From the NCBI GenBank assembly GCA_964645795.1, contig CAZYCL010000001.1, forward strand, positions 287,194 through 351,193: DNA of 64,000 bases. Reading direction: 5' to 3'. Both the position numbers and the translations under genes were made by a program. The notes under the pieces are model-generated. The model ran no database searches. It was not told the DNA's origin and worked only from the letters and a program-made list of their open reading frames with translations. Source of the DNA: an uncultured Planctomycetales bacterium (GTDB lineage Bacteria; Omnitrophota; Gorgyraeia; Gygaellales; Profunditerraquicolaceae). This document shows positions 10,473 to 45,617 of this stretch, piece after piece (position 1 is the first letter of the stretch; each line of letters begins with the position of its first letter).

Positions 10473-10478
10473 AATCGC

Positions 10479-15649: not shown

Positions 15650-15651
15650 GC

Positions 15652-16814: not shown

Positions 16815-17116
16815 CCTTTGCGCCTCAGATACCTTAACGCCTCCCAGCTAAAAATACAGCAGAACGGTATCACCACGAAAAACATGACCTCCTCTAACGG
16901 CAGGTTAATGAAGCGCACGCCCCCTACTCCTGCGGGATCAAAATACCAGTGGCCGCGCCAGGTAGCAAAGACATCCCAGCCCCCGAAAATGAACACTATC
17001 AAAAGAATGCTTAAAGCAAGGCTTTTGGCATTACGGTAGAACTTAAGGGGCGGCCAGAAGCTGCAGATAAAGGGGATAGCCGCAGAGCAAACTAATAGCA
17101 TGGCGTATTTGGACAT
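16811..17116 (-). CDS. Lycopene cyclase domain protein (heterodimeric cyclase subunit, CrtYc-like)
   Basis: 101 aa, 3 TM helices. WDVFATWRGHWYFDP resembles the lycopene cyclase domain motif. Confidence 0.65.
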   Translation of the reverse strand: MSKYAMLLVCSAAIPFICSFWPPLKFYRNAKSLALSILLIVFIFGGWDVFATWRGHWYFDPAGVGGVRFINLPLEEVMFFVVIPFCCIFSWEALRYLRRKG

Positions 17117-17186
17117 GGGTTCATTTTACAACATAAAACAGAATCAGTAAAATACAAATATTGGGACCGCGCGGCTACCATACTTC

Positions 17187-17214
17187 TTGATTTACGCTCC
17201 TACGGTTGTAAAAT
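17187..17214 (+). promoter_or_regulatory. Candidate sigma70 promoter (TTGATT-16-TAAAAT) placing the crtB ATG at the TSS, i.e. leaderless
   Basis: TTGATT at 17187-17192, TAAAAT at 17209-17214, ATG at 17222. No SD is present. Confidence 0.35.
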
Positions 17215-17221
17215 ATAGGTT

Positions 17222-18103: not shown

Positions 18104-18923
18104 ATCCGCCGGTTTCTGCTTCGGGGTCAAACGCGCCATCAACATCGCCCTCGACACCGCATCAATCGGCAAACAGGTATACATGCTCGGGGATATCGTG
18201 CATAACGAAACGGTCGTAAACAGTATCCGCGAGCGCGGGATCAAGAAGATCGCCAGGCTTGGCAACGGTAAAAACAAGATCCTCCTGATCAGGGCTCACG
18301 GCGCCTCCAAAAGGCTGATATCAAAGGCAAAAAAACAAGGCTACGGGATAGTAGATGCCACCTGCCCCATGGTCAAAGAGATACACCGGATCGCCAGGAG
18401 CATGGAAAAAAAGTGCGGCCGGATCATCGTCATCGGGGACAAGAAACACGACGAAGTCCTCGGGATCATCGGGCAACTGAAGAAGCCGGCAGTGGTCATC
18501 GACGACTTAAAACGCATGCCCTTGGCCCGGATAAAAAGGCTTTCCAGGGCCTGCGTGGTAGTGCAGTCTACCCAGAATTCCGAGAAAGTCATGCGTATCG
18601 TGGAAATACTCAAGCGGCATATCAAAAAACTTATCTTCTTCAACACGATCTGCAAACCGACCAGGTTGAAACAGGAAGAGATCAAGCGCATGCCCCTTGA
18701 GAACGACCTGATGCTCATCATCGGCTCTAAAAACAGCGCTAATACCAAGAGGCTTTACGAGATATCCAAATCCCTCAATAAAAACAGCTACTGGGTCAAT
18801 TCTTGCTGCGATATCAGGAAAGATTGGTTCAGGAGAGCAAAATCGGTAGGCCTGACTGCCGGGGCATCAACCCCTAAGGCGATTATCCAAGAAATCATCA
18901 AATACCTGTCTTCTATCGGTTGA
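18084..18923 (+). CDS. ispH: 4-hydroxy-3-methylbut-2-enyl diphosphate reductase
   Basis: N-terminal AGFCFGVKRAI (conserved Cys), three conserved Cys, LytB-like length. Confidence 0.85.
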   Translation: MKINIAKSAGFCFGVKRAINIALDTASIGKQVYMLGDIVHNETVVNSIRERGIKKIARLGNGKNKILLIRAHGASKRLISKAKKQGYGIVDATCPMVKEIHRIARSMEKKCGRIIVIGDKKHDEVLGIIGQLKKPAVVIDDLKRMPLARIKRLSRACVVVQSTQNSEKVMRIVEILKRHIKKLIFFNTICKPTRLKQEEIKRMPLENDLMLIIGSKNSANTKRLYEISKSLNKNSYWVNSCCDIRKDWFRRAKSVGLTAGASTPKAIIQEIIKYLSSIG

Positions 18924-20397
18924 CCCTCAAACCCCCTCTTTTGTCCCTGGAGATGAAATTAGCCACTATGCGCGAGCCCGCGATGACCACCGGCAGGCCT
19001 CCCCCGGGCTGAGTGCTGGCGCCCACATAATAGAGGTTCGGTATCTGCAGCCCGAAATCGGGAAGATCGATATTGGGGGGTCTAAAGAACGCGCTCTGCA
19101 TGAGCGTATGCGAGAGGCCGAATGCCGCCCCGAATTTAAGGTTGTAGCGCTTCACAAAATCATGCGGGTAGAATCTGTGCTCTACTTCTATCAGATCTTC
19201 AAGGTTTAAACCGCATACCTGTTTTATCCGCTCGAATATCCGGCCCCTTATCGCCTGCTCGTAATCATATAATTCTGCCTGCTGCCGGTCAAGATTAGAG
19301 ACCGGCACCAGGATGTAAAGGATATCTTTGCCTTCCGGGGCCAGCGATGCGTCGGTATGGGTAGGCACGTGCACATAAAAAGACGGGTCATCCAGCGCAG
19401 TCTTATTCCTGAATATATCCCGCAGATTCTTTGCGAGATCGGCCGAAAAGAAGATATTGTGGTGTTCAAGCCCCTTGACCTTCTTCTTAAGGCCCAGATA
19501 AATAAGATAGGCCGAGCATGAATAATCGTAGCGGGGGATCCTGCGGCCTAAAAGCGCGCTTTGGGCGTAAGCGTAATCGGCGTTAACTACCGTCTTTGCC
19601 GCCTCAAACTCCTCCTTGCCAAAGCATAGCCGCAGCATGGTGCGATTCTGGCGGATAGAATCTATGGGCGTGCGGTAATGAAACTTAACCCCCATCTTGC
19701 GGCAGAGCTTCTCCAGCGCTAAGGGTATCTGATACATGCCGCCCATGGGATGATGGATCTTTTTGGCATGGTCAAGGTAGGTGATTATGCTGTAAAGCGC
19801 CGGGGCGTCGAAGGGAGAGACGCCAATGAACATGGATTCAAAGGTAAAGGCGTTAGAGAGCTTGTCGTTCTTGAATATCCTGCGCACGAAATTCCAGTAG
19901 CTCTCCATGGCGCTTAACCTGTTCAAAAGCAGCCAGTAAACGGGGTTTAGCAGCGTCGAGGGAGTGAAACAGCGGTAGAGCATGGGCTTGACCGTATCGT
20001 ATATGCGGCCGGACCTCTCCATGAATCTGTCGAAGGCGCTCGCAGCGCCTTTTTCTATTTTTTCCAGCTCTTCTCTCGTGCGCCGGCTGTCCTGGAATAT
20101 CGTCAGCGCCTGTCCGTCGGCATAAAATATCTTGTAGCTGGTCTCAAGCGGCACCAGCCTAAGATGATCGTTTATATCGCAGCCGCAGTAAGAAAACAGC
20201 TCTTCAAAAAAATCAGGCATCAGCACAAACGAAGGCCCGGTGTCGAATTTAAAACCCTTATCCTCGATGATGTTACACCTGCCGCCGCAGCCATCCAGCT
20301 TCTCGAAGACCTCGACCTTGTGTCCGCGATAAGCCAGCCGCGCTGCAGACGCCAGCCCGCCGATCCCTGCGCCTACAATGCCTATACTCTTAGCCAT
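18913..20397 (-). CDS. crtI: Phytoene desaturase (CrtI family)
   Basis: N-terminal GAGIGGLASAARLA FAD fold, 494 aa, CrtI-like C-terminus. It converges with ispH. Confidence 0.8.
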   Translation of the reverse strand: MAKSIGIVGAGIGGLASAARLAYRGHKVEVFEKLDGCGGRCNIIEDKGFKFDTGPSFVLMPDFFEELFSYCGCDINDHLRLVPLETSYKIFYADGQALTIFQDSRRTREELEKIEKGAASAFDRFMERSGRIYDTVKPMLYRCFTPSTLLNPVYWLLLNRLSAMESYWNFVRRIFKNDKLSNAFTFESMFIGVSPFDAPALYSIITYLDHAKKIHHPMGGMYQIPLALEKLCRKMGVKFHYRTPIDSIRQNRTMLRLCFGKEEFEAAKTVVNADYAYAQSALLGRRIPRYDYSCSAYLIYLGLKKKVKGLEHHNIFFSADLAKNLRDIFRNKTALDDPSFYVHVPTHTDASLAPEGKDILYILVPVSNLDRQQAELYDYEQAIRGRIFERIKQVCGLNLEDLIEVEHRFYPHDFVKRYNLKFGAAFGLSHTLMQSAFFRPPNIDLPDFGLQIPNLYYVGASTQPGGGLPVVIAGSRIVANFISRDKRGGLRVNR

Positions 20398-22296: not shown

Positions 22297-24254
<1,958 letters not shown>

Positions 24255-24258
<4 letters not shown>

Positions 24259-25202
24259 CTTCTGCGCGGCATAAAAGGGTTTGAGCCGGCGCTGGCTTTA
24301 GGCAAAGAGTACTTCTTGGTCTTGATGATCGCCGTTTCTTTTTCGCTCACCCCGGAAATGATCTCCACGTTTTTCTGGTCGGATACACCCAGCTCTACTT
24401 TGCGCCTCTGAGGCTCTCTGCCTTCCTCTGTTTCTATCAGGACCCAGGCGCCGTCATTGTCTCTCTGGACCGCCTCCTGCGGCAGGAGAAGGATGCCGCT
24501 TTTACTCTTTACCTTAAGCTCTGCAGTCGCGTTCATCCCCGAGCGAAGGAACGCCGGAGGGCTTTCCAACTGCAGGTCCACCTCGTAAACCGTGACGTTA
24601 TTAACGGTCTTGGATTCGTAATATATATGCTCGACCCCGGCCTTGATCTCGGTGTCGGCGTAAGCATCAAGGCTTACCAGCGCCGATTGGCCGAGCCTGA
24701 CCTTGGCCATATCTGTCTCGTCAACCTGGGCCCTGACGATAAGCTGATCGGAAAGGACCAGTATCGGATCGGATGTAGTGACGGCCTGGCCCGGCTGGGT
24801 CTTGGATACGATCACTTCGGCATCGATGGGAGAGATCAGGGGGATAGGCTTGTAGACCTCCTGCCAGTACTTAAGCTCTCCCTCGCCTTTACCGCGCGAG
24901 GCATCAAGCAGCGCGGCGCGCTCAGTCGAGCTCAACCAGGCCAGATTCTGCCCTGCCTTTATGCGCTCCCCCTCTTTTACCAATACGCTTTCTACCCGGC
25001 CGTTAACAGGTGGCTTGATCTCCAGCCTGTTCTTGGGCAGGACCGTAGCGGTAGTGGATATCGTCTCTTCAATATTGCCGCGAAAAGGCCTCATCTCTTT
25101 TATTGTCTCGCCTTCCTTTTTCGCCAAACCGCTCTTGAAGATAAAAAAGGCGGCCGCGCCGGCGGCCAATAAAACCAGAAGTATTATTATTTTATTGCGC
25201 AT
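24255..25202 (-). CDS. macA: Periplasmic adaptor subunit (MacA/HlyD family)
   Basis: Signal anchor, coiled-coil and beta-barrel regions. It is coupled to macB. Confidence 0.7.
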
Positions 25203-26478
25203 ATTCCAGCGTCTCTCCTTTCGCCAATATCCAGCCGGCCTCGGCCAAAAGCGAATCAGCCTGGCTTTCCAGAAAACTTCTTTTCGCGCTTACCAGATCG
25301 TTCTCAATGATTATCCAATTGTCAAATGATATGAAGCCTACCGAGTACTGCCCCTCTGCTATCCTTGAGCGCTCCTCAGACGCCTCCAGGGACTTGCGCT
25401 GCACATCTACCTTTTCAGCCGCGTCCTGCAGGCCTGCCCAGTATTGCCGCAGATTGACCATCGCTGCCTCCCTTATGCTTCTTTCGCTGGAGGCGGCCTG
25501 ATTATAGAGCGCCCTGGCCCGGGATACCTGGGCAAACTTTAAACCGCCCTCAAATATAGGCAAACTTACCCCCAGGGCCATATCCCACTGACTGTCCTTA
25601 GGCGGCCAGCGCGAACTTGACTTGTTCGCCCCGGCAGAAGCGGACAACTCCGGGAAAAAACTTGCCTGCGCCGATTTAAGGCTGAAGGCTTGAGAGTTGG
25701 TTTTGGCAGCGGCTGCCAGCACCGAAGGATTATTATGGATCATTTTCTCGAAATCCGGATCATCCGCAAGCGGCTCCGTTAATTCGAATCCTGCGGCAAC
25801 GCTTATCGGGCTGAACTGCTTTCTGCCCAATTGCCTGGAAAGGGCGTATTGACTGGTCTCCAGGTTTCTTTTGGCCTGAGAGAGCTCAAAATTAGCCTGG
25901 GCAAGATTTGCCTGCGCTGCCAATAATGCCCCCTTATGTTCTAATCCGGATTCATAGCGCAGGGTTATCAAAACGAGGTTATCGCGCCTTATCCTTACTA
26001 TATCTTGTGCTACGCGCACCATCTCCTGTGCCCTTAAGAGGCCGATGAAGGCGGCGCGTAAATTATACCTTACCTGCGATGAGGTATAGCGGAAATTCTC
26101 TCTTGCGCCTTTTACCTCTTCGGAGGCGGCCTTCATCTCCTGGACGGTCTTGAGGCCGTCGAAGATGAGCTGCGAACCTGAAACTCCGTAAGAATACGAA
26201 TCCCTGGTCGTAGTAGTCTCTTTACCTGAAGAGCTTGTCGTAGTTTTGGCGCGCGATGCATCCACGGAGGCGTTAATTTGAGGGTAAAGGCCGCTTGCCG
26301 TAACAGACTTTGCCGCCTTTTTCTCCTTGACCCCTTCTGCGGCATAGATCAGGTCAGGATGGTTCTTCTTTGCCTCAAGGATGCAATCCTGCCAGGAAAG
26401 CGTCTCTTCGGCCAATATCCGCTGCGGCATAAGGCAAAGCAACCATAAAATTATAATGATGGGCCTGCCGGATCTCAT
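25192..26478 (-). CDS. TolC-family outer membrane efflux protein
   Basis: Signal peptide and two repeated helical/beta halves. 428 aa, leading macAB. Confidence 0.7.
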   Translation of the reverse strand: MRSGRPIIIILWLLCLMPQRILAEETLSWQDCILEAKKNHPDLIYAAEGVKEKKAAKSVTASGLYPQINASVDASRAKTTTSSSGKETTTTRDSYSYGVSGSQLIFDGLKTVQEMKAASEEVKGARENFRYTSSQVRYNLRAAFIGLLRAQEMVRVAQDIVRIRRDNLVLITLRYESGLEHKGALLAAQANLAQANFELSQAKRNLETSQYALSRQLGRKQFSPISVAAGFELTEPLADDPDFEKMIHNNPSVLAAAAKTNSQAFSLKSAQASFFPELSASAGANKSSSRWPPKDSQWDMALGVSLPIFEGGLKFAQVSRARALYNQAASSERSIREAAMVNLRQYWAGLQDAAEKVDVQRKSLEASEERSRIAEGQYSVGFISFDNWIIIENDLVSAKRSFLESQADSLLAEAGWILAKGETLEYAQ

Positions 26479-31284: not shown

Positions 31285-31388
31285 CGTTTCTCCTTTGCTT
31301 CTATTCTATTCCAACGCCCGGTTCTAAGCAAGTTATATTTGAAATGGATTAGCTTTTAATTCCGCCTGTTATATAATATAATAAAATA

Positions 31389-33557
31389 ATGAGAAACCCG
31401 GCCAAGATTACTCCTGCTATCGAATGGTGGTTTGCCCAAGGTTACTTCCAGGGCGGCCCTTGCGACAAACGTTTCTTCATGGCCAGTATCTTCAAGGCCG
31501 ATACCGCGCCTAAGGGCAAGCCCTCCAAACCCGGCTTTACGCTGTTGCTTTCCCTGCTGGATCCGCAGACAGGAGAAAACCATAGCTTAAGCCAGACAGA
31601 CGCCGCCACATTAGAGCTTTTGTGCCGGACAGGGAAAGACCGGCGTTCATCGGGCCTTGACCCCGTGATGGTCAACTCCTACCTCGACGAACTAAGAGAG
31701 TACGGCCCTGCCCTGCCCATAAAACTGCAAAAAACTCCGGTATCATTTGAAAACGGACCGCTAAAGATAAAATGGGATCATTTTTCACTGTCAGAGTCCG
31801 GGGGATCTTTCCGCCTCTCTTTTCGTCAGCCTCATAACGGCAAACAATGTTCATTCGAACTTACTCCGCAATGCCAGCGCATCACCATAGAAGGCTCATC
31901 CGGCCGCTTTAAAGCACTGGATTACGTTACCTTTCCCCGGCTCAAGCTTAAAGGTAAATCAGGAGGCTCTCCTGTCCGCGGAGAAGCCTGGCTTGACCAC
32001 CAATGGGGAGATTTCGGCGGCTGGTTCATTGACCGCCCCGGAGGCAACAGGCTCCTTGGCTGGGACTGGTTCGGGATAAACCTCGATAACGCAGATGACC
32101 TGCTGGTCATGACGCACCGCGATATGCAAAAGGACATCCCCGTAGCGCAGTTCGCGCTGCTTTCCAGAAAAAAGGAGTACCCGCGCCTGTTAAAGGATGT
32201 AGAGCTCCGGCCAATAAGGTATTGGGAGAGCAAAACCACTTTTATCAGGTATCCTATTGCCTGGAGTATAAAAATACCTTCGCTTAAATGCGAGCTTGTC
32301 TTTGAGCCTCTGGCAGACGACCAGGAGATAAAAACCATCGGATTCATGCGGGCGATCTGGGAAGGCGCGGGGACGGTCAAGGGCAGGCTGGAGGGTAAAC
32401 GCGTATCCGGCAGGGCCAGGCTTGAACTCTTTGGCTATGGTTTCATCTTTGATTACAAGGACTACGCCCAAAGGCTGATAAAGCGCATTGACAAAAGCAT
32501 AGAAGATTTCCTGCCTAAAGAGATCGGGCGAAAGCATCTAGCAAAGTATGCCGGACCGGACTGCCGCAGCTGTGATCCCTCTGTTTATACCCGCACGCTT
32601 TCGCTGCCGCTCTGGGACCTGATGTCGCGGCCGGGAAAACACTGGCGTTCTATTTTTAACGCCCTCATGCTGGAGGCGCTGGGAAAATCCTTCATCCCCT
32701 ATGAATCCCTGGTAGCTGTGATCCCGGAGCTCACCCACGCCGGCTCCCTAATAATTGACGATATCGAAGACGGCTCAAAGCTGCGCCGCAAGAATAAATG
32801 CATACATTTGCGTTATGGGCTCGATACTTCCTTAAATGCCGCCAATACTGCCTACTTCCTTCCCTACCTGGTCATCAGCGACCACCCGCTCCTATCGGAT
32901 AGCCAAAGGCTGGAGTTATTCCGCATCATGGTGCGGCAGTTCTCCCGCGCGCACCTCGGGCAGGGCCAGGACATTTTCTGGTCCAAAAACATGAATATAA
33001 ACAATCTGAATCGCTGGCTAAACAATAAAACCCGCGGCCAGATCCTGCAGATGTATGCCTATAAGACCGCGGCAATCGTAGAGGGGATAGCAGAATCCGC
33101 AGCAGTTATCGCGCAGGCCGATGCTGCTGTGCGCAAGGCCTGCGCTTCTTTTGGGCGCAAATTGGGGGTGGCTTTTCAGATCATCGATGACTTAAACGAA
33201 CTTTCGGGCCTGGATAAGGACAACGCAGCCCCCGGCGAAGACATCTTTTCCGGAAAACTAACTTATATAATGTTCACTGCCCTGACGAAATTAAAAGGCC
33301 GCGATAAAAGACGCCTGCAGATGATCGTCTGCTCGAAAAAACCCTCGCTATCGCTTATTAATGAAGGGCTCAGGTTGGTGCGGGCCTCAGGCGCCATAGA
33401 AGAATCCCACAGGTTTGCCAAAAATCTGGTAGAGACTGAATGGCGAAGCTTATCAGCTCATCTTGCCCCTTCGGAGCCAAAGACGATGCTTAGGCTATTA
33501 TGCACCAAGCTTCTCCAGATAAACGCAACCTCATCAGACAAAAAACACGAGAGATAA
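31389..33557 (+). CDS. Two-domain fusion. The N-terminal domain is CrtC/AttH-like (lipocalin-like carotenoid 1,2-hydratase family). The C-terminal domain is polyprenyl-synthase-like (isoprenoid synthase fold).
   Basis: N-terminal IEWWFAQGYFQG and GEAWLDHQWGDFGG (the EWWY and WxDHEW motifs of CrtC/AttH). C-terminal IIDDIEDGSKLRRK (FARM-like) and FQIIDDLNELSG (SARM-like). Confidence 0.55.
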   Translation: MRNPAKITPAIEWWFAQGYFQGGPCDKRFFMASIFKADTAPKGKPSKPGFTLLLSLLDPQTGENHSLSQTDAATLELLCRTGKDRRSSGLDPVMVNSYLDELREYGPALPIKLQKTPVSFENGPLKIKWDHFSLSESGGSFRLSFRQPHNGKQCSFELTPQCQRITIEGSSGRFKALDYVTFPRLKLKGKSGGSPVRGEAWLDHQWGDFGGWFIDRPGGNRLLGWDWFGINLDNADDLLVMTHRDMQKDIPVAQFALLSRKKEYPRLLKDVELRPIRYWESKTTFIRYPIAWSIKIPSLKCELVFEPLADDQEIKTIGFMRAIWEGAGTVKGRLEGKRVSGRARLELFGYGFIFDYKDYAQRLIKRIDKSIEDFLPKEIGRKHLAKYAGPDCRSCDPSVYTRTLSLPLWDLMSRPGKHWRSIFNALMLEALGKSFIPYESLVAVIPELTHAGSLIIDDIEDGSKLRRKNKCIHLRYGLDTSLNAANTAYFLPYLVISDHPLLSDSQRLELFRIMVRQFSRAHLGQGQDIFWSKNMNINNLNRWLNNKTRGQILQMYAYKTAAIVEGIAESAAVIAQADAAVRKACASFGRKLGVAFQIIDDLNELSGLDKDNAAPGEDIFSGKLTYIMFTALTKLKGRDKRRLQMIVCSKKPSLSLINEGLRLVRASGAIEESHRFAKNLVETEWRSLSAHLAPSEPKTMLRLLCTKLLQINATSSDKKHER

Positions 33558-33559
33558 AT

Positions 33560-34678
33560 ATGAATCTCCTTTCATTCCTAATTAAGGACCTTCTGCGCCG
33601 CAAGCTGCGCATCCTGCTTACCATCGCGGGGGTGGCGGTGGGGCTGGCTGCCTGCACCATAATGCTGGGCTTAAGCCAGAGCATCCGCGATTCTTTCCGC
33701 CTGGCCCACTCCAACCGCAATATCGATATCATCGTATTTGAAAAGGACGGATACAACATCCTCTCCAGCAAAGTAGACGAAGCGATAATCCGGCAGCTAC
33801 AACGGCTGCCTGAAGTGGAATCCGCTGCCGCAGCCATCCTTGACCTGCAAAAGTTCGATAACCGGTATCTGCCGCTGTTCGGCTGGGCCCCCGGCTCACT
33901 GCTCTATGACCAGATAGTGATCAGCTCCGGGAGAAAACCGGCGCAAGCCGCCAATGAAGTGATCGTCGGCGATCTCTTTGCCCGGGCATCGGAGAAAAAG
34001 ATCGGGGACAAACTCTCCATAAAGGGGCAGCCTTTCGAGATCGTAGGCGTCTTTAAAAGCCAGGTGCCGTTTGAAAGGTCGGCACTGGTCATTTCGCTGG
34101 ATATGCTGCAGAGGATAAAGAATACGGGTGCTACGGTAGCGGCAGTGCACCTGCGTTTAAAAAGCGGATACAGAAACAAAGATACCGTTGATGCTGTATC
34201 CCGCAGGATAGAAGAGCTTTACCCTAAAATAAGCGCCCAGCCCGCAGATATCTTTATGAGCGAAAAGACCCGTCAGATAATCTTAGGCGAGAAGTTCTCC
34301 CTGCTTATCGCGATAGTCATAATCGTGGCAGTGGTGCTGGGCCTTTCCAATACCATGATCACCACGGTATTTGAGCAGAGAAAGCTCATGGGCGTGCTTA
34401 TTGCCCTTGGCTGGCAGAAAAGCGACGTCTTAAAGCTGGTATTTTCGCAGGCCCTGCTTCTGGTCTTTTTTGCCGGGGCCATCGGCGCAGGGATCGGTTT
34501 CTATGCCACCGCAGGCGTATTCAGGATGATGGAGATAAGCGTATTTGCCCCGGCGCAAGACTTCATATTTATCTTAAAGGTCGCCGGGATGATCCTTGTC
34601 TCGGGCCTGGCCGCAGCCTTGATCCCTGCCTGGATCATCATCAACTTAAACCCCGTCGAGGTGATCAAAAGTGAATAA
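33560..34678 (+). CDS. ABC transporter permease (FtsX/MacB-LolC type). Start taken at the internal ATG 33560, directly after the upstream stop.
   Basis: N-terminal TM helix, ~200-aa periplasmic domain, three C-terminal TM helices. The ORF-track N-extension overlaps the upstream gene. Confidence 0.7.
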   Translation: MNLLSFLIKDLLRRKLRILLTIAGVAVGLAACTIMLGLSQSIRDSFRLAHSNRNIDIIVFEKDGYNILSSKVDEAIIRQLQRLPEVESAAAAILDLQKFDNRYLPLFGWAPGSLLYDQIVISSGRKPAQAANEVIVGDLFARASEKKIGDKLSIKGQPFEIVGVFKSQVPFERSALVISLDMLQRIKNTGATVAAVHLRLKSGYRNKDTVDAVSRRIEELYPKISAQPADIFMSEKTRQIILGEKFSLLIAIVIIVAVVLGLSNTMITTVFEQRKLMGVLIALGWQKSDVLKLVFSQALLLVFFAGAIGAGIGFYATAGVFRMMEISVFAPAQDFIFILKVAGMILVSGLAAALIPAWIIINLNPVEVIKSE

Positions 34679-35351
34679 ACCGGGCGATGATATACTTATC
34701 CGTTGTCAGGGTTTAAGCAAAACCTATCCCAATACCCGGACCAATGCCCTGCGCCAGGTCCAGCTTGACATCCGCCGCGCTGAATTCATAAGCATTACCG
34801 GCCCCAGCGGCAGCGGCAAATCTACCTTCCTTAATATTCTCGCCGCGCTTATTGAGCCAACAGAAGGAGAAGTGTCCTTCAGGGGCCGCCCGTACTCAGA
34901 GATAAAAAATAAACCACTTTTCAGGCGCGAGAATATCGGCTATATCTTCCAGGACTTCTATCTCTACCCCGGTTTCAGCGCGCTGGAAAACATCCTTATC
35001 GCCAGTGCCTACAGCCTCCTCAGGCCGCGCTCACTTAAAGACCGGGCCTTAGAGCTCCTCTCCTATCTTAATCTGGGCTCAAAAGCATTACTTAAGGTAA
35101 ATACGCTTTCTGCCGGAGAGCGCCAGAGGGTTTGTATCGCCCGGGCCCTCATTCACCAGCCGGCGCTGATCCTGGCGGATGAGCCTACCGGCAGCCTCGA
35201 CAGCAATAACGCAAGGGCCATTATGGATATCTTAAAGGTAATCAACGCCGAGAAGGAAGCGACCATTATCATGGCTACCCATGATATGCGCATGGCCGGC
35301 TATGCCCACAGGAACATAGCAATTGAGGATGGGGTCCTTAGGAGATCTTAA
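34671..35351 (+). CDS. ABC transporter ATP-binding protein (LolD/MacB-ATPase type)
   Basis: [35 protein letters not shown]. Confidence 0.85.
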   Translation: MNKPGDDILIRCQGLSKTYPNTRTNALRQVQLDIRRAEFISITGPSGSGKSTFLNILAALIEPTEGEVSFRGRPYSEIKNKPLFRRENIGYIFQDFYLYPGFSALENILIASAYSLLRPRSLKDRALELLSYLNLGSKALLKVNTLSAGERQRVCIARALIHQPALILADEPTGSLDSNNARAIMDILKVINAEKEATIIMATHDMRMAGYAHRNIAIEDGVLRRS

Positions 35352-35651: not shown

Positions 35652-36527
35652 TTAAACCTCGATCCCGAACACATTCCTTATCGCCAGCCCGATGAGAAAG
35701 TTAATCGCTGCGACGCTAAGGCTTATCCCGGCCATCTCCAGGAACCTTTTCCTGAAATCAAGCCCTTTAGCCACCGAAATGTAGTAGGTAAAGCAGAATA
35801 TCAAAATAAGCGAAAAGGCGACTACCAGGCCCAGGCAAAGAAACATATTATCAAACAATAAGTAGGGAAAGACCAAAAGCGCTACGGTCCCGATATAGGC
35901 GCTTCCCGTATAGATACTGGCCTTAACGGGGTCCTTGTCCGTCTCTTCGTGCTTGGTAGAAAGGTACTCGGAGGCAGCCATAGACATGGCAGCGGCAATG
36001 CCGGTGATCAGCCCCACGACGGCAATAAGCTTTGTCTTCTGCAGTGCAAGCGTAAACCCGACCAGGGCGCCGCTTAACTCTACCAGGGCGTCGTTAAGGC
36101 CCAGCACCATGGAGCTGACGTACTTTAGTCGCTCCTCGTCTATCAGGCTGATCAGTTCGTTCTCATGGCTCTTTTCGTCCTTGATCACCTCTTCTATTTT
36201 AGGCGAAACTTCTTTAATCTTTTCATAGGCATCCTGGGCCAGGTCCTCGCCGTTTTCCATGAGCTTTAAGCCGAAGTTCAGGCCCAAGATCTTAGAGATA
36301 GCCACAAAGATAAGGATCTTGCGCTTATCAGGGGAAACCTCCTGACCGGTAAGGGTTTTGAAATAATCGTAATGCGCCAGCTCTTCGCCGGCTATCCTCT
36401 CCAGGATTTCGGCGTGCTTTGAGGCCTTTACAAATCCGGCCAGCTTCTTATAAACCACATGCTCGGTGATCTCATTCCTCTGCGCCCGCAGGGCCTCTCT
36501 TCTCAAGCCAGGGCTTAATGGATCCAT
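35652..36527 (-). CDS. MbfA-like membrane-bound erythrin-VIT1 iron exporter (ferritin-like N-terminal domain plus VIT1/CCC1 domain)
   Basis: N-terminal E...ExxH ferritin-like helices (EELAHYDYF, DEKSHENEL) followed by VIT1-type TM helices. Confidence 0.7.
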   Translation of the reverse strand: MDPLSPGLRREALRAQRNEITEHVVYKKLAGFVKASKHAEILERIAGEELAHYDYFKTLTGQEVSPDKRKILIFVAISKILGLNFGLKLMENGEDLAQDAYEKIKEVSPKIEEVIKDEKSHENELISLIDEERLKYVSSMVLGLNDALVELSGALVGFTLALQKTKLIAVVGLITGIAAAMSMAASEYLSTKHEETDKDPVKASIYTGSAYIGTVALLVFPYLLFDNMFLCLGLVVAFSLILIFCFTYYISVAKGLDFRKRFLEMAGISLSVAAINFLIGLAIRNVFGIEV

Positions 36528-36552
36528 CTTTAGCGCCTCTCTATTCCTCGGC

Positions 36553-36852
36553 CTACCTTTTTCTTATTTCTTCCTCTACCTCTTCTGCGCCCTCATCGTA
36601 GAACTTCTGCTCATCAGGGGCCAGCTCCTTTAAGAGCCTCAGGAACTCTCCTGCATGCACTTTTTCTTCATCCGCGATATCCCTTAAGACTTCCTGCGAC
36701 AGTTTATGGTCGGTTGACTCCGCAAGCTGCATATAAAGCTGTATCGCCTCGTACTCCGCGGCGATCATGAAGCGGATAGCGCGGATAAGCTCCTCTTTGG
36801 CGATCTTCTTATCCCTGGATAGCCCTGAAAACGGCGTGCAAAATTCCGGCAT
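36553..36852 (-). CDS. Two-helix erythrin/half-ferritin-like protein (single E...ExxH diiron half-site)
   Basis: AAEYEAIQLY on helix 1 and ADEEKVHAGEF on helix 2. 99 aa. SD AGGAGG. Confidence 0.5.
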   Translation of the reverse strand: MPEFCTPFSGLSRDKKIAKEELIRAIRFMIAAEYEAIQLYMQLAESTDHKLSQEVLRDIADEEKVHAGEFLRLLKELAPDEQKFYDEGAEEVEEEIRKR

Positions 36853-36871
36853 GACAAACCTCCTTTATTGT

Positions 36872-37000
36872 TTAACCTTTGATCTTTACCATCGGCTGCT
36901 GGCAGCAGACCAGCTCCCCGCCGCCTGCCTTCTTAACCTCCACGACATTGCCGCAGACTTCGCACTTATATACTTCTCCCTCTTTTTCTACTCTTGCCAT
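36872..37000 (-). CDS. Desulforedoxin-like small protein (42 aa). Not in the ORF track.
   Basis: Minus strand: [42 protein letters not shown], with CxxC...CC spacing like desulforedoxin. AGGAGGGGG SD lies 6 nt upstream. Confidence 0.6.
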
Positions 37001-37021
37001 ACCCCCTCCTGTCCAAAGATT

Positions 37022-37765
37022 TTATTTTACTTCCACCGTAGCGTTAGAGTCAAAAGGATTGGTCCTGGCTGCCAGCGAAAAAAGATACGGGTAATCGTGT
37101 TTTAGGTACTTCATATGATCCAGCCACTGCAGGATAAGCCCGTGGTAGGCCCTCTTTATGTCTCCAGCCAGATGCTGATAATCCGTATCCGGCAGCTTCT
37201 TTAAGTCTGCGCGGTGCGCCAGCTCATCGGTCAGGTGGAATACCGCCCAAAGCAGATTGGTAAATGACTCGTGCTCCAGCATATTGGGGTTCTCCAGCAG
37301 CCCGAGCATGAACTGCCTTTTGGAAACCAGGAAATCCTTTACTTCTGCCAAGCCCCCCTTTTTGCTGTCAACCCCTATATCGAAGCCCTCTATCTTCTTG
37401 CGCGCAGAGATAAACTCCTTATCCGACCAGTCTTTGGTCACTACCAACTGCGCAGCCAGCCTTGAAAGCTCCGGGGCAAACTGCGAGCACCTCTTCAAGA
37501 GCTCAGTGCCCACTTCGCTGAAAAAAGTCCCGATGACCATGTTCAGCTTCTTCATGATCGTCTGTTTCTCCCGGTATTCAAGCAAGCGGTGCAGGACCAG
37601 CATCACGATCAGCACATCCAAAAAAAGAAAAGCAATGTCGCCTACAAGATAAAGGAATATATGGTGGGCGTCCCTGAATATAAAATAGTGGATAAAATAG
37701 AAAAGCGCCGAGAGAAAAACCAGGATGAGCGCCAGTATGAGCTGCCAGCTGCGAATAAGCTTCAT
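37022..37765 (-). CDS. Hypothetical membrane protein (3 TM helices plus a cytoplasmic domain)
   Basis: 247 aa, no recognisable motif. It is the first gene before the desulforedoxin gene. Confidence 0.4.
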   Translation of the reverse strand: MKLIRSWQLILALILVFLSALFYFIHYFIFRDAHHIFLYLVGDIAFLFLDVLIVMLVLHRLLEYREKQTIMKKLNMVIGTFFSEVGTELLKRCSQFAPELSRLAAQLVVTKDWSDKEFISARKKIEGFDIGVDSKKGGLAEVKDFLVSKRQFMLGLLENPNMLEHESFTNLLWAVFHLTDELAHRADLKKLPDTDYQHLAGDIKRAYHGLILQWLDHMKYLKHDYPYLFSLAARTNPFDSNATVEVK

Positions 37766-37779
37766 TTACCTACCTCTTT

Positions 37780-38592
37780 CTAGCCGAATGCCACATCCAG
37801 TATCATCATCGCCAAAAACCCTAAAATCGTACCTGCCGTAGCCAGGTCAGTATGGCCGTTGCGTTGTGATTCGGGTATGACCTCTTCGACTACGACGAAT
37901 ATCATCGCCCCTGCGGCAAAACCCAGGGCATAAGGAAGCAATGGCCTGGCCCATAAAACCGCTGCCGCGCCTAATACTGCGGCAATGGGTTCAACAATCG
38001 CGGAAAGCTGGCCGAACCAAAAACTCCTGAACTTGGACATTTTTTCGCGGCGAAGCGTTATCGATACGGCGAAGCCTTCAGGTATATTCTGGATGCCTAT
38101 ACCAAACGAAAGCACTATTGCCGCAGCCATTGTGGCTTCCGGTAAACCTAAAGCCGCCGCCCCGATTGCCACTCCCACAGCCAGGCCTTCCGGAATATTA
38201 TGCAACGTTATTGCCAGTATCAAGAGCACGCTTCGGCGCCAGGAAGTTTTTAGTCCTTCGGCCTCGGAAACGGAAAACCCCAGATGCAGATGGGGTAATA
38301 CCTTATCGATAGACCTTAAAAACAGGGTCCCTAAAAGGAGGCCGGCAGCGGCAGGCATCCAGGGGATCGTCCCGGCGTGATACGACATCTCGATCGCCGG
38401 AGAAAGCAGCGACCAGAAGCTTGCCGCCAGCATCACCCCGGCGGCAAATCCGAGCATGGAATCAAAGACCTTCTGGCTAAAATCTTTTGTGATAAATATG
38501 AAGGCAGCGCCCAAAGCAGTAAGCAGCCAGGTAAAACCGCCCGCTGCCAGCGCCTGCAATACGGGATGATAATTCTCGATATTAACGCTCAT
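37780..38592 (-). CDS. ZIP family metal (Zn/Fe) permease (ZupT-like)
   Basis: HNIPEGLAVG and QNIPEGFAV motifs. 8 TM helices. Confidence 0.8.
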   Translation of the reverse strand: MSVNIENYHPVLQALAAGGFTWLLTALGAAFIFITKDFSQKVFDSMLGFAAGVMLAASFWSLLSPAIEMSYHAGTIPWMPAAAGLLLGTLFLRSIDKVLPHLHLGFSVSEAEGLKTSWRRSVLLILAITLHNIPEGLAVGVAIGAAALGLPEATMAAAIVLSFGIGIQNIPEGFAVSITLRREKMSKFRSFWFGQLSAIVEPIAAVLGAAAVLWARPLLPYALGFAAGAMIFVVVEEVIPESQRNGHTDLATAGTILGFLAMMILDVAFG

Positions 38593-38658
38593 ATGTTCGT
38601 ATTATACCAAGTCCGGGGGGCGCCTGCAACAGAAACAGGCGCCCCCTTGACAGCCGTT

Positions 38659-39210
38659 TTACTTCAGGAACTTAGAGACAAAAGGCGACGTCTCGCCGCG
38701 GCGCATAAAATGCCCGGAAGGGCCTTCGCCGAGGAATTCGGCAAACCAGGACTCGTGCTCGATCTCTTCGTTAAGTATGGCCAGGACCAGATCGTAGGTG
38801 CGGTGGTCTTTGCCAGCGGTCATATTGCATATCTCGGTGTAACCCTTGACCGCGCATCTTTCCGCGTTAGCCAGGACCTTCAATATCCCCTCGACATCTT
38901 CGGGCGACTTCGGAAGATTCGCCGGCGGACATGCAGAAAGGTCATGGAACTTCTTCATGCAGTCCGGAAGCTTGCCTCCCAGCTCATAGATACGCGGGAC
39001 CAGCGCCTCAAAGTGGTTGCGGTCTTCGATCCTGGCGGTCTCGGCTATTTCCTTGACCCCCTCGCCCTTTAAACCAATTAGGTTGGCACGCAAGATCGTA
39101 TAATAGTAATAGGTGGTGATCTCTGCCGACGCGTTCTTTATCAACAGGTCCAACAACTTATCCAAATCCACTCCCGACTGTTTAACCATCTCGATCGCTA
39201 CTTTTGCCAT
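38659..39210 (-). CDS. Ferritin-like diiron protein (bacterioferritin/DPS-like family)
   Basis: Four-helix-bundle ligand pattern: SAEITTYYYY, IEDRNHFE, ANAERCAV, LNEEIEHESW. Confidence 0.6.
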   Translation of the reverse strand: MAKVAIEMVKQSGVDLDKLLDLLIKNASAEITTYYYYTILRANLIGLKGEGVKEIAETARIEDRNHFEALVPRIYELGGKLPDCMKKFHDLSACPPANLPKSPEDVEGILKVLANAERCAVKGYTEICNMTAGKDHRTYDLVLAILNEEIEHESWFAEFLGEGPSGHFMRRGETSPFVSKFLK

Positions 39211-39290
39211 TTTTCTCCTCCTGTTTTAGTATAGCAGCTTAAGTTTCAACTCTTTCTTTTGCAAAGCCTGCATTCCCTCCTTTCATACTT

Positions 39291-39306
39291 ATTACTAATT
39301 AGTAAT
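39291..39306. promoter_or_regulatory. Perfect 16-bp palindrome ATTACTAATTAGTAAT (candidate Fur/PerR-type operator) upstream of the ferritin-like gene
   Basis: Read directly. It lies between the fur 3' end and the ferritin-like gene start, followed by a third half-site TATTACTAA. Confidence 0.4.
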
Positions 39307-39335
39307 TATTACTAACGTTAAACCAAAAAAAAATT

Positions 39336-39779
39336 TTACTTCTTCTTAGCGCACTGCCCGCAGATGCCCTCTAAAACCACTTTCTTGTTTAAAATATTGA
39401 ACCTCGACTTTATCTCTTCGGGTATTTTGATATTATCGTAGTATTCGTTATAAAAATCCACTATCTTATGGCACCTGGCGCACCTGAAGTGGTGATGGGT
39501 TCTTGTGTTGGGGTCAAAACGCTTGGACCCTCCGTAGCCCTCCACTATATTGATCAGCCCTATATCGGAAAGCGAGATGACCGTCCTGTATACGGTATCG
39601 AATGATATATTGGGAAAGGCCGCTTTTATCCTTTTCAGTATCGCCTCAATAGAAGGATGGTCTTCTGCCTTCACCAGCTCCTTGTATATTTCGGTGCGCT
39701 GCGGCGTAAGCTTAAGCCCGCGGCTGCGGCAGGCCTGCCTGAAGCGTTCCATGGCCTCCTGAACATCTGTTTTATGCAT
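39336..39779 (-). CDS. Fur family transcriptional regulator (Fur/PerR/Zur)
   Basis: Winged-helix N-terminus, HHHFRCARC and CGQC metal sites. Confidence 0.85.
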   Translation of the reverse strand: MHKTDVQEAMERFRQACRSRGLKLTPQRTEIYKELVKAEDHPSIEAILKRIKAAFPNISFDTVYRTVISLSDIGLINIVEGYGGSKRFDPNTRTHHHFRCARCHKIVDFYNEYYDNIKIPEEIKSRFNILNKKVVLEGICGQCAKKK

Positions 39780-43944: not shown

Positions 43945-44415
43945 ATGAAGGAAGAAGGCCTTGGTAAAGCTCTTTTGAGCGTCTTGGTCGTGTCGGTTGT
44001 GGTGGTTGGTGTTATTGCTTTTATTTTCTATCGGGTGAGGCTGATTGGGCCTGTAATTGTTGTTTTGGGTTTTGTTCCGTTGATTCCTTTGAAGCTGTCT
44101 GGCAGGTCGGTTAAGTCAGCTGGTGCAGACATTATTTTTGGGGCTATCGATACAGGTCTCTTGGGAGTTGCTGCCCTTATTGGGGCGAGTTTTGCTGGAG
44201 TGCTCGGAGCTATTGTCGGTGGTGCTGTCGGGGATTCGATTACTGATGGGTTGGCTGGCTTGTTTGAGGGAAAGATTGCTGAGCGTTTGAGAAAGCTCGG
44301 GATTGATGAAGCACGGACTCCTCTCAGTTCTTCAATGGGGAAGATGAGCGGTTGTCTATTTGGGGTTGGAGTTGTTTTAACAATTGCTTGGAGTATAATC
44401 GGAATAAGTATGTAA
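43945..44415 (+). CDS. Gly/Ala-rich hypothetical membrane protein (AT-rich island)
   Basis: 156 aa, three or four hydrophobic helices, lower GC than the flanks. Confidence 0.4.
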   Translation: MKEEGLGKALLSVLVVSVVVVGVIAFIFYRVRLIGPVIVVLGFVPLIPLKLSGRSVKSAGADIIFGAIDTGLLGVAALIGASFAGVLGAIVGGAVGDSITDGLAGLFEGKIAERLRKLGIDEARTPLSSSMGKMSGCLFGVGVVLTIAWSIIGISM

Positions 44416-44609: not shown

Positions 44610-45617
44610 ATGGCTAAGATAAATAAGCTACTTAGAACGTTACCAGTGCTAATATATTGGATTTTTGCATTATTGGTACTTTTTGAAATAGGAGTTCGGT
44701 TTTGGGGTTATTCCCAACATTATATTTACGACCCAATCTATAAAGAATTTGACAAGAGTAAAGATTTGCCTTATATCCATAAGCCAAATCTTAAAAATGC
44801 TCGAGGGCGCGGATTGACTAATGTCAATACGGATGTTCTGGGTCTGCGTTCAAAAATGCCAGGTATTAAATATGGACCGAAGAAAGAGAATGATTATAGG
44901 ATCGTAATATTAGGCGATTCAGTGGCCTTCGGAGAAGGCGTAAAGATGGAGGAAGACACTTTTGCTCAGGTGCTTGAAGATATTCTTAACACAAAACAAC
45001 ATTCCTTTGTCGTTAAGGTATTCAACTATGGAGTTTCGGCGTACAGCATTAAGAATATGGTGGCAACCTTACAATATAGAGCGCTGGATGTAGAGCCGGA
45101 TTTGGTCCTTATGACGGTCATTCCTGACGACTTTCGGATTGACAGAACGGTTGTTGTAGACAAGTTCGGGTACACCTTTAATAAACGTTTATCCGGTTTC
45201 ATGAATAAGGATTCCGCTATAAAGCGTTTATTACGGGAAGTGCATTTAGTATATCTTCTTAGGGATATAAAGCATTTTTACATTGATCGGATCCGAAATA
45301 CAAAAGACATGGGCCCATCAGATTCCTTGGATGATTATGCTTATATTGTAAAATTTAAAGAGATCTCAACGCAGCATGGCTTGCTTTACGCGGTAGTGCT
45401 TTTACCAGATCTCGCTGAAGATTTTAAAAGTTTGTTAGCAAAATTAAATCAAGATGAAATAGTCTCTATCGACCTCTCGTTTCTTAAGAATGAATTTACT
45501 CCTCGTGAATTTATGGCGAGTAAGTTTGATAGACATCCTTCGGCAATTGTTCATAGAAGAATAGCCAGAATGCTTTCGGAATACATTATAAGCAATCAAT
45601 TGATACCCAAGAAATAG
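44610..45617 (+). CDS. Membrane-anchored SGNH/GDSL hydrolase-family protein (paralogue 2, AT-rich)
   Basis: LGDSVAFGEG (block I) and DRHPS (DxxH). N-terminal TM. Confidence 0.6.
   Translation: MAKINKLLRTLPVLIYWIFALLVLFEIGVRFWGYSQHYIYDPIYKEFDKSKDLPYIHKPNLKNARGRGLTNVNTDVLGLRSKMPGIKYGPKKENDYRIVILGDSVAFGEGVKMEEDTFAQVLEDILNTKQHSFVVKVFNYGVSAYSIKNMVATLQYRALDVEPDLVLMTVIPDDFRIDRTVVVDKFGYTFNKRLSGFMNKDSAIKRLLREVHLVYLLRDIKHFYIDRIRNTKDMGPSDSLDDYAYIVKFKEISTQHGLLYAVVLLPDLAEDFKSLLAKLNQDEIVSIDLSFLKNEFTPREFMASKFDRHPSAIVHRRIARMLSEYIISNQLIPKK

Follow-up and report, generated by a model that had tools for sequence, protein, structure and literature searches.

A conserved fusion of an AttH/CrtC-like barrel and a prenyl diphosphate synthase, encoded with a type VII ABC transporter, as a candidate source of exported hydroxylated isoprenoids

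What does a cell do with a protein that carries, in one chain, a hydratase-like barrel of the AttH/CrtC kind and a prenyl diphosphate synthase, and why is its gene followed at once by those of an ATP-binding cassette (ABC) permease and ATPase? The question is raised by a 64,000-nucleotide stretch of DNA (hereafter the window; contig CAZYCL010000001.1, positions 287,194 to 351,193 of the forward strand) from an uncultured Planctomycetales bacterium that GTDB places in the Omnitrophota (assembly GCA_964645795.1). An initial annotation, made from the sequence alone, had described the fusion and its transporter partners and had suggested that a lipophilic product, for example a carotenoid, is exported. 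We find that the fusion is a real, widely conserved family whose catalytic residues are kept, and that its gene is linked to the ABC permease. Judged from residues and gene context, we propose a geranylgeranyl diphosphate (GGPP) synthase joined to a prenyl-end hydratase, the hydroxylated product of which would be exported by the ABC system, and we give this reading the same chance of being right as of being wrong. The three genes are as follows.

31389..33557, + strand: fusion gene, 722 amino acids (open reading frame list); AttH/CrtC-like domain, helical linker and trans-prenyl diphosphate synthase domain.
33560..34678, + strand: permease, 372 amino acids, type VII ABC, with a first transmembrane helix (TM1), a MacB-like periplasmic core and an FtsX bundle of three transmembrane helices (Pfam).
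34671..35351, + strand: ABC ATPase, 226 amino acids, GTG start, LolD/FtsE/DevA-like (Pfam ABC_tran, 8.6e-33).

Both genes that flank this set lie on the opposite strand, which marks it out as a three-gene unit. In the mechanical list of open reading frames the permease starts at 33500; the ATG at 33560, 2 nt past the TAA of the fusion gene, gives the 372-residue product, in agreement with the gene calls on two public contigs with the identical locus. The ATPase gene begins with the GTG at 34671, so that its first 8 nt are shared with the end of the permease gene, and GAGGTG, a Shine-Dalgarno-like sequence, precedes it. The MacB/LolC-type pair with a 2-nt gap and then an 8-nt overlap, as first described, is thus present in the sequence, and this arrangement of AttH-like, permease and ATPase genes (2 nt, then -8 nt) is that of an AttEFGH-type module. 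Ahead of the fusion gene (31360-31388) a Shine-Dalgarno sequence is not visible; a TATAAT-like run stands only about 12-18 nt before the ATG, and the fusion mRNA may therefore be leaderless or nearly so. A promoter and terminator scan returned sites no more numerous than in shuffled sequence, and no tRNA genes were found.

The two halves of the 722-residue protein divide as follows.

31389..32444, + strand: double lipocalin-like beta-barrel of the AttH/CrtC/kievitone-hydratase fold, residues 1-352 (PF07143, PF17186, Foldseek).
32598..33518, + strand: all-helical trans-isoprenyl diphosphate synthase domain, like type-III GGPP synthases (GGPPS), residues about 404-710 (PF00348).

The motifs from which these halves were first recognised, EWWF, AWLDHQWG, IIDDIEDGSKLRRK and FQIIDDLNELSG, all stand in the protein, and the assignment itself is confirmed by Pfam, by sequence searches of the PDB and by fold. 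In Pfam, the fusion protein scores 31.9 bits for CrtC (PF07143; curated cut-off 22.5; a partial match, residues 120-207), 83.5 bits for Lipocalin_9 (PF17186; cut-off 26.2) and 151.5 bits for polyprenyl_synt (PF00348; cut-off 27, 3e-44), with no match to a terpene-synthase family. A PDB search with a profile of 25 homologues returned GGPP and solanesyl diphosphate synthases at about 1e-35 and the putative AttH protein NE1406 (2ich) at 2e-30; searched as a single sequence, the C-terminal half has human GGPS1 (9hjs) and yeast GGPPS (2dh4) as its best matches. The AlphaFold2 model, built with 114 homologues, has a mean predicted local distance difference test score (pLDDT) of 92.7 and a predicted template modelling score (pTM) of 0.92. 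Residues 11-348 are beta in the model save for an inserted helical pair (72-105), residues 356-721 are helical, and, given the pTM, the two halves are expected to keep one fixed orientation to each other. With Foldseek the N-terminal half matches 2ich (E 2e-18) and kievitone hydratase (7a0t, E 1e-13), and the C-terminal half matches Pyrococcus GGPPS (1wy0) with a target TM-score of 0.88. Family profiles and fold together place the N-terminal half in the AttH/CrtC double lipocalin fold. None of the fusion, the permease and the ATPase falls in a curated NCBIfam equivalog.

A hydropathy scan found neither a signal peptide nor a transmembrane segment in the fusion protein. The N-terminal signal peptide with which AttH is secreted is missing from the fusion family, in which 1 of 103 N-terminal extensions is hydrophobic; the window protein has 11 polar residues before EWWF, against a family median of 24 residues. 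This fits a cytoplasmic protein, where the synthase half would find the isopentenyl diphosphate (IPP) and Mg2+ that it needs.

Is the fusion genuine? In a search of 5.8 billion proteins the best 120 matches are nearly all full-length, with 40-50% identity and the same three Pfam domains. Counted as one genome per species, about 45 species carry it, across many bacterial phyla and in several Methanoregula: Syntrophales, Smithella, Acidobacteriota, Aminicenantes, Omnitrophota, Verrucomicrobiota, Phycisphaerales, Bacteroidales, relatives of Ignavibacteria, and Alpha-, Beta- and Gammaproteobacteria, with Desulfatitalea alkaliphila M08but and Antarctobacter jejuensis KCTC 42009 as cultured carriers. 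An exhaustive phmmer search with the N-terminal half gave 94 clusters (50% identity) at E <= 1e-30, most of the best-scoring of which have the length of the fusion (700-770 residues), and distant fusions with 23-26% identity over the whole alignment lie on plasmids of Streptomyces canus and Tolypothrix. The initial annotation had named two outcomes that would count against it, failure to recover the two folds, and halves that are separate in all relatives and joined here by a frameshift; neither was found, the fusion being genuine and conserved. A sequencing frameshift or artificial fusion is ruled out by identical genes on independent public contigs and by the full-length relatives, which number more than 120, and as to separate genes, only a few stand-alone N-terminal halves were seen. 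One of these (locus L048, 419 residues) has no prenyl synthase within 10 kb; it adjoins a gene with a lycopene-cyclase domain. In five further loci (L033, L039, L040, L042, L046) fusion copies from metagenome-assembled genomes (MAGs) are split by frameshifts, probably assembly errors, which would mimic separate genes in automated annotation. The fusion had been described as not known. In databases it is abundant, under generic names such as 'polyprenyl synthetase family protein' or 'geranylgeranyl pyrophosphate synthase/predicted secreted hydrolase'; in the searchable literature the claim stands, as we found no paper that studies the fusion or describes a fusion of a beta-barrel with a prenyltransferase (PT).

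What would the barrel do? Conservation is counted, here and below, among 114 homologues of the fusion protein. Three motifs of the N-terminal half bear on the question.

31422..31433, + strand: EWWF, E12-F15, kept in 110-112/114 homologues.
31986..32009, + strand: AWLDHQWG, residues 200-207, with D203 as predicted catalytic acid; matches the RgCrtC block.
32058..32069, + strand: GWDW, holding W225 and W227, which correspond to CrtC W283 and W285.

In CrtC, mutagenesis showed D268 to be the acid that protonates and Y266, W283, W285, W110, H239 and W241 to be essential as well, with W283 and W285 stabilising the carbocation (PMC4717167, PMC12402844). The fusion's 'GEAWLDHQWG...GWDW' lines up with the RgCrtC alignment block '...GHAYFD.NWG...YWDWSR' (supplement, PMC4717167), so that D203 equals D268, W201 equals Y266, and W225 and W227 equal W283 and W285. 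These residues are kept in 112 (D203), 114 (W201), 114 (W225) and 113 (W227) of the homologues; both the catalytic Asp of the CrtC Y-x-D motif and the W283/W285 pair have their counterparts here. At the D203 position, Agrobacterium AttH and the Tolypothrix fusion also have Asp, and the Streptomyces fusion has Glu. By their place in the domain, W13/W14 are the probable counterparts of CrtC W110. An alignment by eye puts the block '(M/L)-x-Y179-x-T-(F/Y)-P-R-L' about 27 residues ahead of D203, with Y179 in 110/114, and this aromatic residue may replace CrtC W241.

The characterised members of the AttH fold, namely CrtC, kievitone hydratase and the archaeal hydroxy-GDGT (glycerol dialkyl glycerol tetraether) synthase Hgs, all turn an isoprene C=C into a tertiary alcohol by adding water, and a near-invariant acid flanked by Trp suits catalysis better than mere binding. 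Both points speak against a barrel that is no hydratase and is instead an acid-started cyclase, which would make the protein a new bifunctional terpene synthase, or a non-catalytic carrier that hands the prenyl product to the ABC system, a role put forward earlier for classical AttH/DUF2006 proteins. There are reasons to entertain such a barrel: canonical AttH proteins have no assigned function yet keep AWLD.EW and GWDW, the genomic link of AttH to LolD-type ABC transporters was taken in 2009 as a sign of lipid transport (PMC2954199), the CrtC authors stress a mechanistic analogy to squalene-hopene cyclase (PMC4717167), and CrtC H239 has no evident counterpart in the fusion. Since the glycosyl- and sulfotransferase domains fused to the Tolypothrix protein (see below) also imply a hydroxyl acceptor, we regard a barrel of either non-hydratase kind as unlikely.

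In the C-terminal half, the question is whether the domain still condenses IPP and, if so, to what length. The features concerned are these.

32751..32792, + strand: first Asp-rich motif (FARM) IIDDIEDGSKLRRK, residues 455-468 (D457, D458, D461, R466, R467, K468).
32853..32858, + strand: Y489-F490, aligned to yeast GGPPS Y107-F108, chain-length floor (2dh4 alignment).
32952..32954, + strand: H522, aligned to yeast GGPPS H139, chain-length floor (2dh4 alignment).
33174..33209, + strand: second Asp-rich motif (SARM) FQIIDDLNELSG, residues 596-607 (Q597, D600, D601).

The isoprenyl diphosphate synthase fold carries both Asp-rich motifs, DDIED at 457-461 and DDLNE at 600-604, and no NSE/DTE terpene-synthase motif takes the place of the SARM. 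Aligned to 1wy0, the domain has the full set of allylic/Mg2+ and IPP-binding residues (GK..R, E..H, RR, KT, FQ, GK). D457, D458, D461, R466, R467, H450, K559, Q597 and D601 are present in 114/114 homologues, and K417 (107/114), R420 (113/114), T560 (111/114) and K623 (112/114) are near-invariant. Chain length appears to be set as in the yeast enzyme, which, according to the part of PMC9729869 that cites Chang 2006, is stopped at C20 by Y107, F108 and H139: the aligned floor residues Y489 (114/114), F490 (100/114) and H522 (114/114) are retained, and G452 and S453 supply the small residues at -5/-4 before the FARM that are typical of type-III GGPPS. With the full catalytic set and the yeast-type floor kept, we predict an active GGPP synthase.

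The initial annotation had come to a different view of this half, reasoning from its FARM variant that it may bind an isoprenoid diphosphate rather than elongate it; the domain would grip the diphosphate head and present the tail to the barrel. The separate, housekeeping-type prenyl synthase at 14609-15649 would leave room for such a division of labour, as would the RRK of the window protein, the Pro missing after this motif family-wide and the Asn that replaces the first SARM Asp in 40/114. The RRK is, however, a singleton, with K468 in 1/114 and Gly at this position in 109/114. The IPP-binding (K417, R420, H450, R466, R467, K559, Q597) and Mg2+/allylic residues (D457, D458, D461, D601) are invariant or nearly so, as is not expected of a domain that no longer condenses IPP, and the chain-length floor is retained as well. 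A binding-only synthase half is, on this evidence, quite improbable, and the comparison with the family does not support it.

How does the transporter relate to the fusion? The permease scores 70.8 bits (2.6e-19) for MacB_PCD and 54.9 bits (1.1e-14) for FtsX, both above the Pfam cut-offs, and the ATPase 114.3 bits for ABC_tran, with Walker A (GPSGSGKST), signature (LSAGERQR) and Walker B (ILADEP) motifs intact in its translation. A MacB core between TM1 and the FtsX bundle, together with a cognate ATPase, defines a type VII ABC system, and the single permease gene implies a homodimer. The pair is neither LolCDE nor MacAB-TolC: the ATPase has LolD (TIGR02211) as its best NCBIfam match with 198.8 bits, below the cut-off of 307.75; the permease reaches 20 bits for LolCE (TIGR02212; cut-off 362) and is the one permease gene; ATPase and permease are separate genes, and the operon has no membrane-fusion protein (MFP).

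For gene context, we clustered the open reading frames around 42 full-length fusion loci and added four annotated contexts, giving 46 loci. The 372-residue MacB_PCD/FtsX permease type, usually with an ATPase, is found no more than 3 kb from the fusion in 13/46, in varying gene orders and in six groups (Syntrophales, Omnitrophota, Verrucomicrobiota, Aminicenantes, Acidobacteriota and Proteobacteria). As a control, a hidden Markov model (HMM) built from the fusion-side permeases, which does detect the window's MacB and cyanobacterial DevC, found 0/34 within 3 kb of non-fused AttH-like genes (Fisher p = 4e-4 vs 13/46). Closest to the window permease among the fetched loci are the fusion-side permeases of Omnitrophota (47% identical) and Syntrophales (42%) genomes, whereas a BLAST comparison gave no match to the permease part of the window's own MacB. 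The possibility that the ABC genes are unrelated neighbours, spaced as they are by coincidence and serving another substrate, draws on the commonness of ABC transporters, on the 33/46 fusion loci without such a permease within 3 kb and on the Methanoregula loci, which have none; with the 2-nt gap and 8-nt overlap, the recurrence in six groups under different gene orders, the empty control set and the kinship of the permease to fusion-side partners, we consider it very improbable. The search in related genomes for the same fusion and ABC partner, which had been proposed at the outset, therefore leaves the export of a lipophilic product by the ABC pair a reasonable idea, as the linkage recurs across phyla and is enriched over the control.

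On this basis we envision the following mechanism, in which we infer the enzyme activities, chain length, hydration substrate, cargo and direction of transport. The 722-residue protein would be a cytoplasmic bifunctional isoprenoid enzyme. Its C-terminal half, of the type-III GGPPS kind, would make GGPP (C20), and Asp203, aided by Trp201, Trp225 and Trp227, would protonate a terminal trisubstituted C=C, with water capturing the cation to give a tertiary alcohol, the outcome seen in CrtC, kievitone hydratase and Hgs. The hydrated chain could be the nascent C20 unit or a lipid built from it. In the window genome that lipid could be a C40 chain formed by the products of the CrtB-like gene and the CrtI-family gene that lie 11-13 kb upstream. 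The translationally coupled permease and ATPase would assemble into a homodimeric type VII (MacB/LolCDE-like) machine and extract the hydroxylated lipid from the inner membrane to the envelope.

Several observations weigh against this synthase-hydratase-exporter proposal. The essential CrtC H239 has no clear counterpart in the by-eye alignment and no His is conserved among the homologues, so that the barrel may fall outside CrtC proper. In the synthase half, the canonical RRG-x-P is not seen: the window protein reads RRKNK, and in the family the +2 position after RRG is E, A, T, D or K, not Pro. The first SARM position, D600, is Asp in 74 and Asn in 40 of 114. Given these three departures, the synthase chemistry could be modified. 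The GGPPS equivalog cut-offs are also missed, the best NCBIfam matches being IdsA (92.7 bits, cut-off 468) and GGPP_syn (65.3 bits, cut-off 500). If GGPP alone were hydrated, the product would be small, and the need for an ABC extractor would be hard to see. No exporter was seen beside the fusion in 27/46 loci, many of them on short contigs. Lastly, a lycopene-cyclase-domain protein that recurs beside the fusion in other loci would compete for the same kind of chain end.

That protein is the commonest enzyme-like neighbour of the fusion (12/46 loci): a polytopic membrane protein of about 235 residues with two GxED/PLEE repeats, weakly matching Pfam Lycopene_cyc (PF18916) in 6/10 members (best E 1.4e-6). 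Its loci include L019:12222-12938, L018:12139-12876, L037:9217-9954, L090:7312-8004 and 10213-10905, and L091:7262-7999, and the family extends to obligate anaerobes such as Smithella; it is absent from the window. Other partners also recur. Six loci have an HpnN-like MMPL/sterol-sensing transporter of the resistance-nodulation-division (RND) type next to the fusion or no more than about 3 kb from it, four have a LolA-like gene (in two Aminicenantes genomes in the order LolA-like, ATPase, permease, fusion) and one has MlaC. In 2 loci a DAGK-type lipid kinase adjoins the fusion, in apparent operons of a 107-residue reading frame, a DAGK_cat/YegS-type kinase, the fusion and an MMPL gene (L011:691-4637, Aminicenantes; L015:8880-14663, a MAG labelled Eubacteriales), and the hydroxylated product may be phosphorylated in such lineages. 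CrtB, CrtI, squalene-hopene cyclase and IspH are not recurrent neighbours, while in the closest relative of the window protein the next gene after the fusion is squalene-hopene-cyclase-like. In a Nitrospirae MAG (JACRLQ010000048.1, L091:6009-10175) a gene for a B12-binding radical S-adenosylmethionine (SAM) protein and a lycopene-cyclase-domain gene precede the fusion, an order that recalls the pairing of the B12-radical-SAM desaturase Ted with the AttH-like hydratase Hgs, as reported for archaeal OH-GDGT synthesis.

The distant fusions have exporters of other kinds beside them. The Streptomyces fusion adjoins an ABC-2 permease and ATPase. On a plasmid of Tolypothrix sp. PCC 7712 (NZ_CP063788.1, L086:6199-10728) a single chain of 1509 residues comprises Sulfotransfer_3, a GT1 glycosyltransferase, CrtC with Lipocalin_9, and polyprenyl_synt, and its gene is flanked by DevB-, DevC- and DevA-like exporter genes and IS701 copies. 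Judged by its domains, this protein looks like a one-chain assembly line for a sulfated terpenoid glycoside: the fused sulfotransferase and GT1 domains imply a product whose hydroxyl can take up a sugar and then a sulfate, and the place between Dev-type exporter genes implies that the final lipid is exported. AttH-like proteins of 1100-1200 residues with C-terminal CrtC and Lipocalin_9 were also met in Chloroflexota and Limnocylindrales MAGs (L053, L058, L064, L067, L069, L076). The permease HMM and Pfam rejected them as FtsX fusions; in L058, the only one scanned with Pfam, about 830 residues without a Pfam match precede the domain pair.

A further possibility, which we hold tentatively and regard as somewhat doubtful, is that the barrel works in cis, hydrating the omega-end of the chain made by its own synthase half or starting its cyclisation by protonation. 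The fusion would then be an unrecognised kind of bifunctional terpenoid synthase that starts a pathway to exported hydroxy or cyclic C20-derived envelope lipids. Such lipids may occur in anaerobic bacteria of the Omnitrophota, Aminicenantes, Syntrophales, Acidobacteriota and Verrucomicrobiota and in Methanoregula, and elsewhere the pathway may be completed by the lycopene-cyclase-domain protein or by the fused glycosyl- and sulfotransferases of the cyanobacterium.

Would the product instead be a carotenoid, as was suggested for the window at first? An isoprenoid cluster (14609-20397, which also holds a TPR protein) lies upstream of the fusion.

14609-15649: stand-alone prenyl synthase, housekeeping-type.
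17222-18103: SQS_PSY gene, 13.3 kb upstream of the fusion; overlaps ispH (to 18923) by 20 nt.
18913-20397, - strand: crtI-family gene, 11 kb upstream of the fusion; convergent.

The carotenoid backbone genes reported at 12 kb are thus there in position, and only partly in identity. The crtI-family protein scores 411.8 bits against a subfamily cut-off of 238.1, the models next in score are those of the 1-hydroxycarotenoid desaturases CrtID and CrtD, and its closest named relatives (60-64% identity) are from Candidatus Omnitrophota MAGs. The SQS_PSY protein falls below every NCBIfam equivalog cut-off, CrtB and HpnD alike, so that its chemistry may be of the carotenoid or of the squalene type. 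On the carotenoid explanation the protein would be a CrtE-CrtC-like fusion: its GGPPS domain would supply the products of the CrtB-like and CrtI-family genes that lie 11-13 kb upstream, the barrel would hydrate the psi-end of an acyclic C40 chain to a rhodopin-type 1-hydroxy product, and the ABC system would move the pigment to the outer envelope. The window cluster, with CrtID and CrtD next in line for its crtI-family gene, is in keeping with this, as are the lycopene-cyclase-domain protein as commonest enzyme-like neighbour elsewhere and the LolA- or HpnN-style export that a C40 lipid plausibly needs. Fusions of non-consecutive carotenoid steps exist, for example fungal CrtYB. At the level of the family the picture differs: within 10 kb of the other fusion loci, about 45 in number, a CrtI-like gene was found only in L036 and SQS_PSY in none, so that a CrtB- or CrtI-like gene accompanies the fusion in just one of them. 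The closest relative has a squalene-hopene-cyclase-like next gene instead, and the Methanoregula, Smithella, Syntrophales and Aminicenantes carriers are not known as carotenoid makers. With the shortfall of the SQS_PSY protein added, a carotenoid product is rather unlikely as the general explanation, although a C40 substrate is possible in the window's own genome; of the original suggestion this local part is what remains.

Other features of the window lie outside these subjects.

22297-26478, - strand: tripartite pump, with a fused MacB (653 amino acids, ATPase and permease), an MFP and an outer-membrane factor.
35652-39400, - strand: iron/oxidative-stress cluster (Pfam labels from the identical public contig, L001).

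The window genome thus holds a MacAB-TolC-type system besides the fusion operon. The members of the 35652-39400 cluster, which is of a type common in anaerobes, are a VIT1-rubrerythrin fusion, a rubrerythrin, a 42-residue desulfoferrodoxin N-domain reading frame, an MJ1433-like protein, a Zip transporter, a ferritin and Fur. Between 42000 and 48000 the G+C content is 0.41-0.45, against about 0.52 elsewhere, and the contents include a radical-SAM/SPASM gene, two reading frames without a Pfam match (43945-44415, 44610-45617) and a GDSL lipase-like gene, with a GT4 glycosyltransferase starting near the 3' end; this segment may be a horizontally acquired surface-glycan island.

The recurrent partners of the fusion (ABC system, HpnN-like RND transporter, LolA-like protein, MlaC and lycopene-cyclase-domain protein) outline an undescribed pathway of isoprenoid-lipid synthesis and export. 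If the synthase-hydratase-exporter proposal is correct, it would give the AttH-ABC pairing its first physiological role, it would provide a terminal hydratase that needs no cofactor and comes with its own source of substrate, as biocatalysis groups seek in CrtC, and it would point to a possible source of hydroxylated terpenoid lipids in anoxic settings. If the barrel acts in cis on its own chain, the exported lipids could be unassigned environmental biomarkers.

Among known systems, CrtC of Rubrivivax gelatinosus and Thiocapsa roseopersicina shares with the fusion PF07143, the two-barrel fold, the Asp of the (Y/W)-x-D motif and the W-x-W pair. It is independent of cofactors and hydrates the terminal prenyl units of C12-C40 terpenoids (PMC4717167, PMC12402844). 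Whereas CrtC stands alone, is membrane-anchored and is encoded in carotenoid/photosynthesis clusters, the fusion is anchorless and joined to a synthase. AttH NE1406 (2ich) is the best structural and sequence match of the N-terminal half, and the paper on its structure had already pointed out that AttH-type proteins go together with LolD-type ABC transporters (PMC2954199). In the attE-attFG-attH set of Agrobacterium (pAt), attH likewise shares a transcript with the genes of an ABC ATPase and a permease of the FtsX/MacB type. Agrobacterium AttH differs, however, in having a signal peptide (it starts MNVKRILLLCALSLPAPAVA), a periplasmic location and no fused enzyme partner, and the att permease is of an 802-residue duplicated FtsX type, compared with 372 residues in the window. 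Kievitone hydratase (7a0t) and archaeal Hgs, which acts on membrane lipids of anaerobic archaea, also add water to an isoprene C=C on the AttH fold to give a tertiary alcohol. They are single-domain proteins, neither fused to a prenyl synthase nor linked to an ABC exporter; kievitone hydratase is secreted and glycosylated, and Hgs pairs with a radical-SAM desaturase.

The synthase half resembles the type-III GGPPS of yeast (Bts1, 2dh4) and human (GGPS1) in its DDIED...RR, the small residues at -4/-5, FQI.DD and the Tyr/Phe/His floor. It is only about 21-24% identical to them, has RRK here, no Pro family-wide and in part N for D in the SARM, and belongs to bacterial and archaeal hosts with a 400-residue N-terminal extension. 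The nearest mechanistic precedent is Penicillium copalyl diphosphate synthase (PvCPS), one of the fungal bifunctional enzymes whose PT domains are among the PDB matches of this half. In PvCPS and in fusicoccadiene synthase a GGPP-forming PT and a further domain that works on its product form one chain, and in PvCPS this further domain protonates the terminal C=C. In those enzymes the partner is a helical alpha or beta-gamma cyclase, in contrast to the all-beta AttH barrel pair, and the domain order of PvCPS is unlike that of the fusion. The transporter, in turn, shares the MacB_PCD/FtsX permease and LolD/DevA-like ATPase of LolCDE, MacAB-TolC and DevBCA, and related fusion loci add LolA-like, MlaC or membrane-fusion proteins to it; known type VII members extract lipids, lipoproteins or glycolipids. 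It differs from these three in its single permease without a fused nucleotide-binding domain, in having no adjacent MFP or outer-membrane protein and in scoring far under the LolCE, MacB and DevC equivalog cut-offs. Taken together, the family of fusions seems to be unstudied, as do its place in the cytoplasm and its broader range of partners; both halves are known kinds of enzyme, and the pairing of AttH with an ABC system is one that had already been noted.

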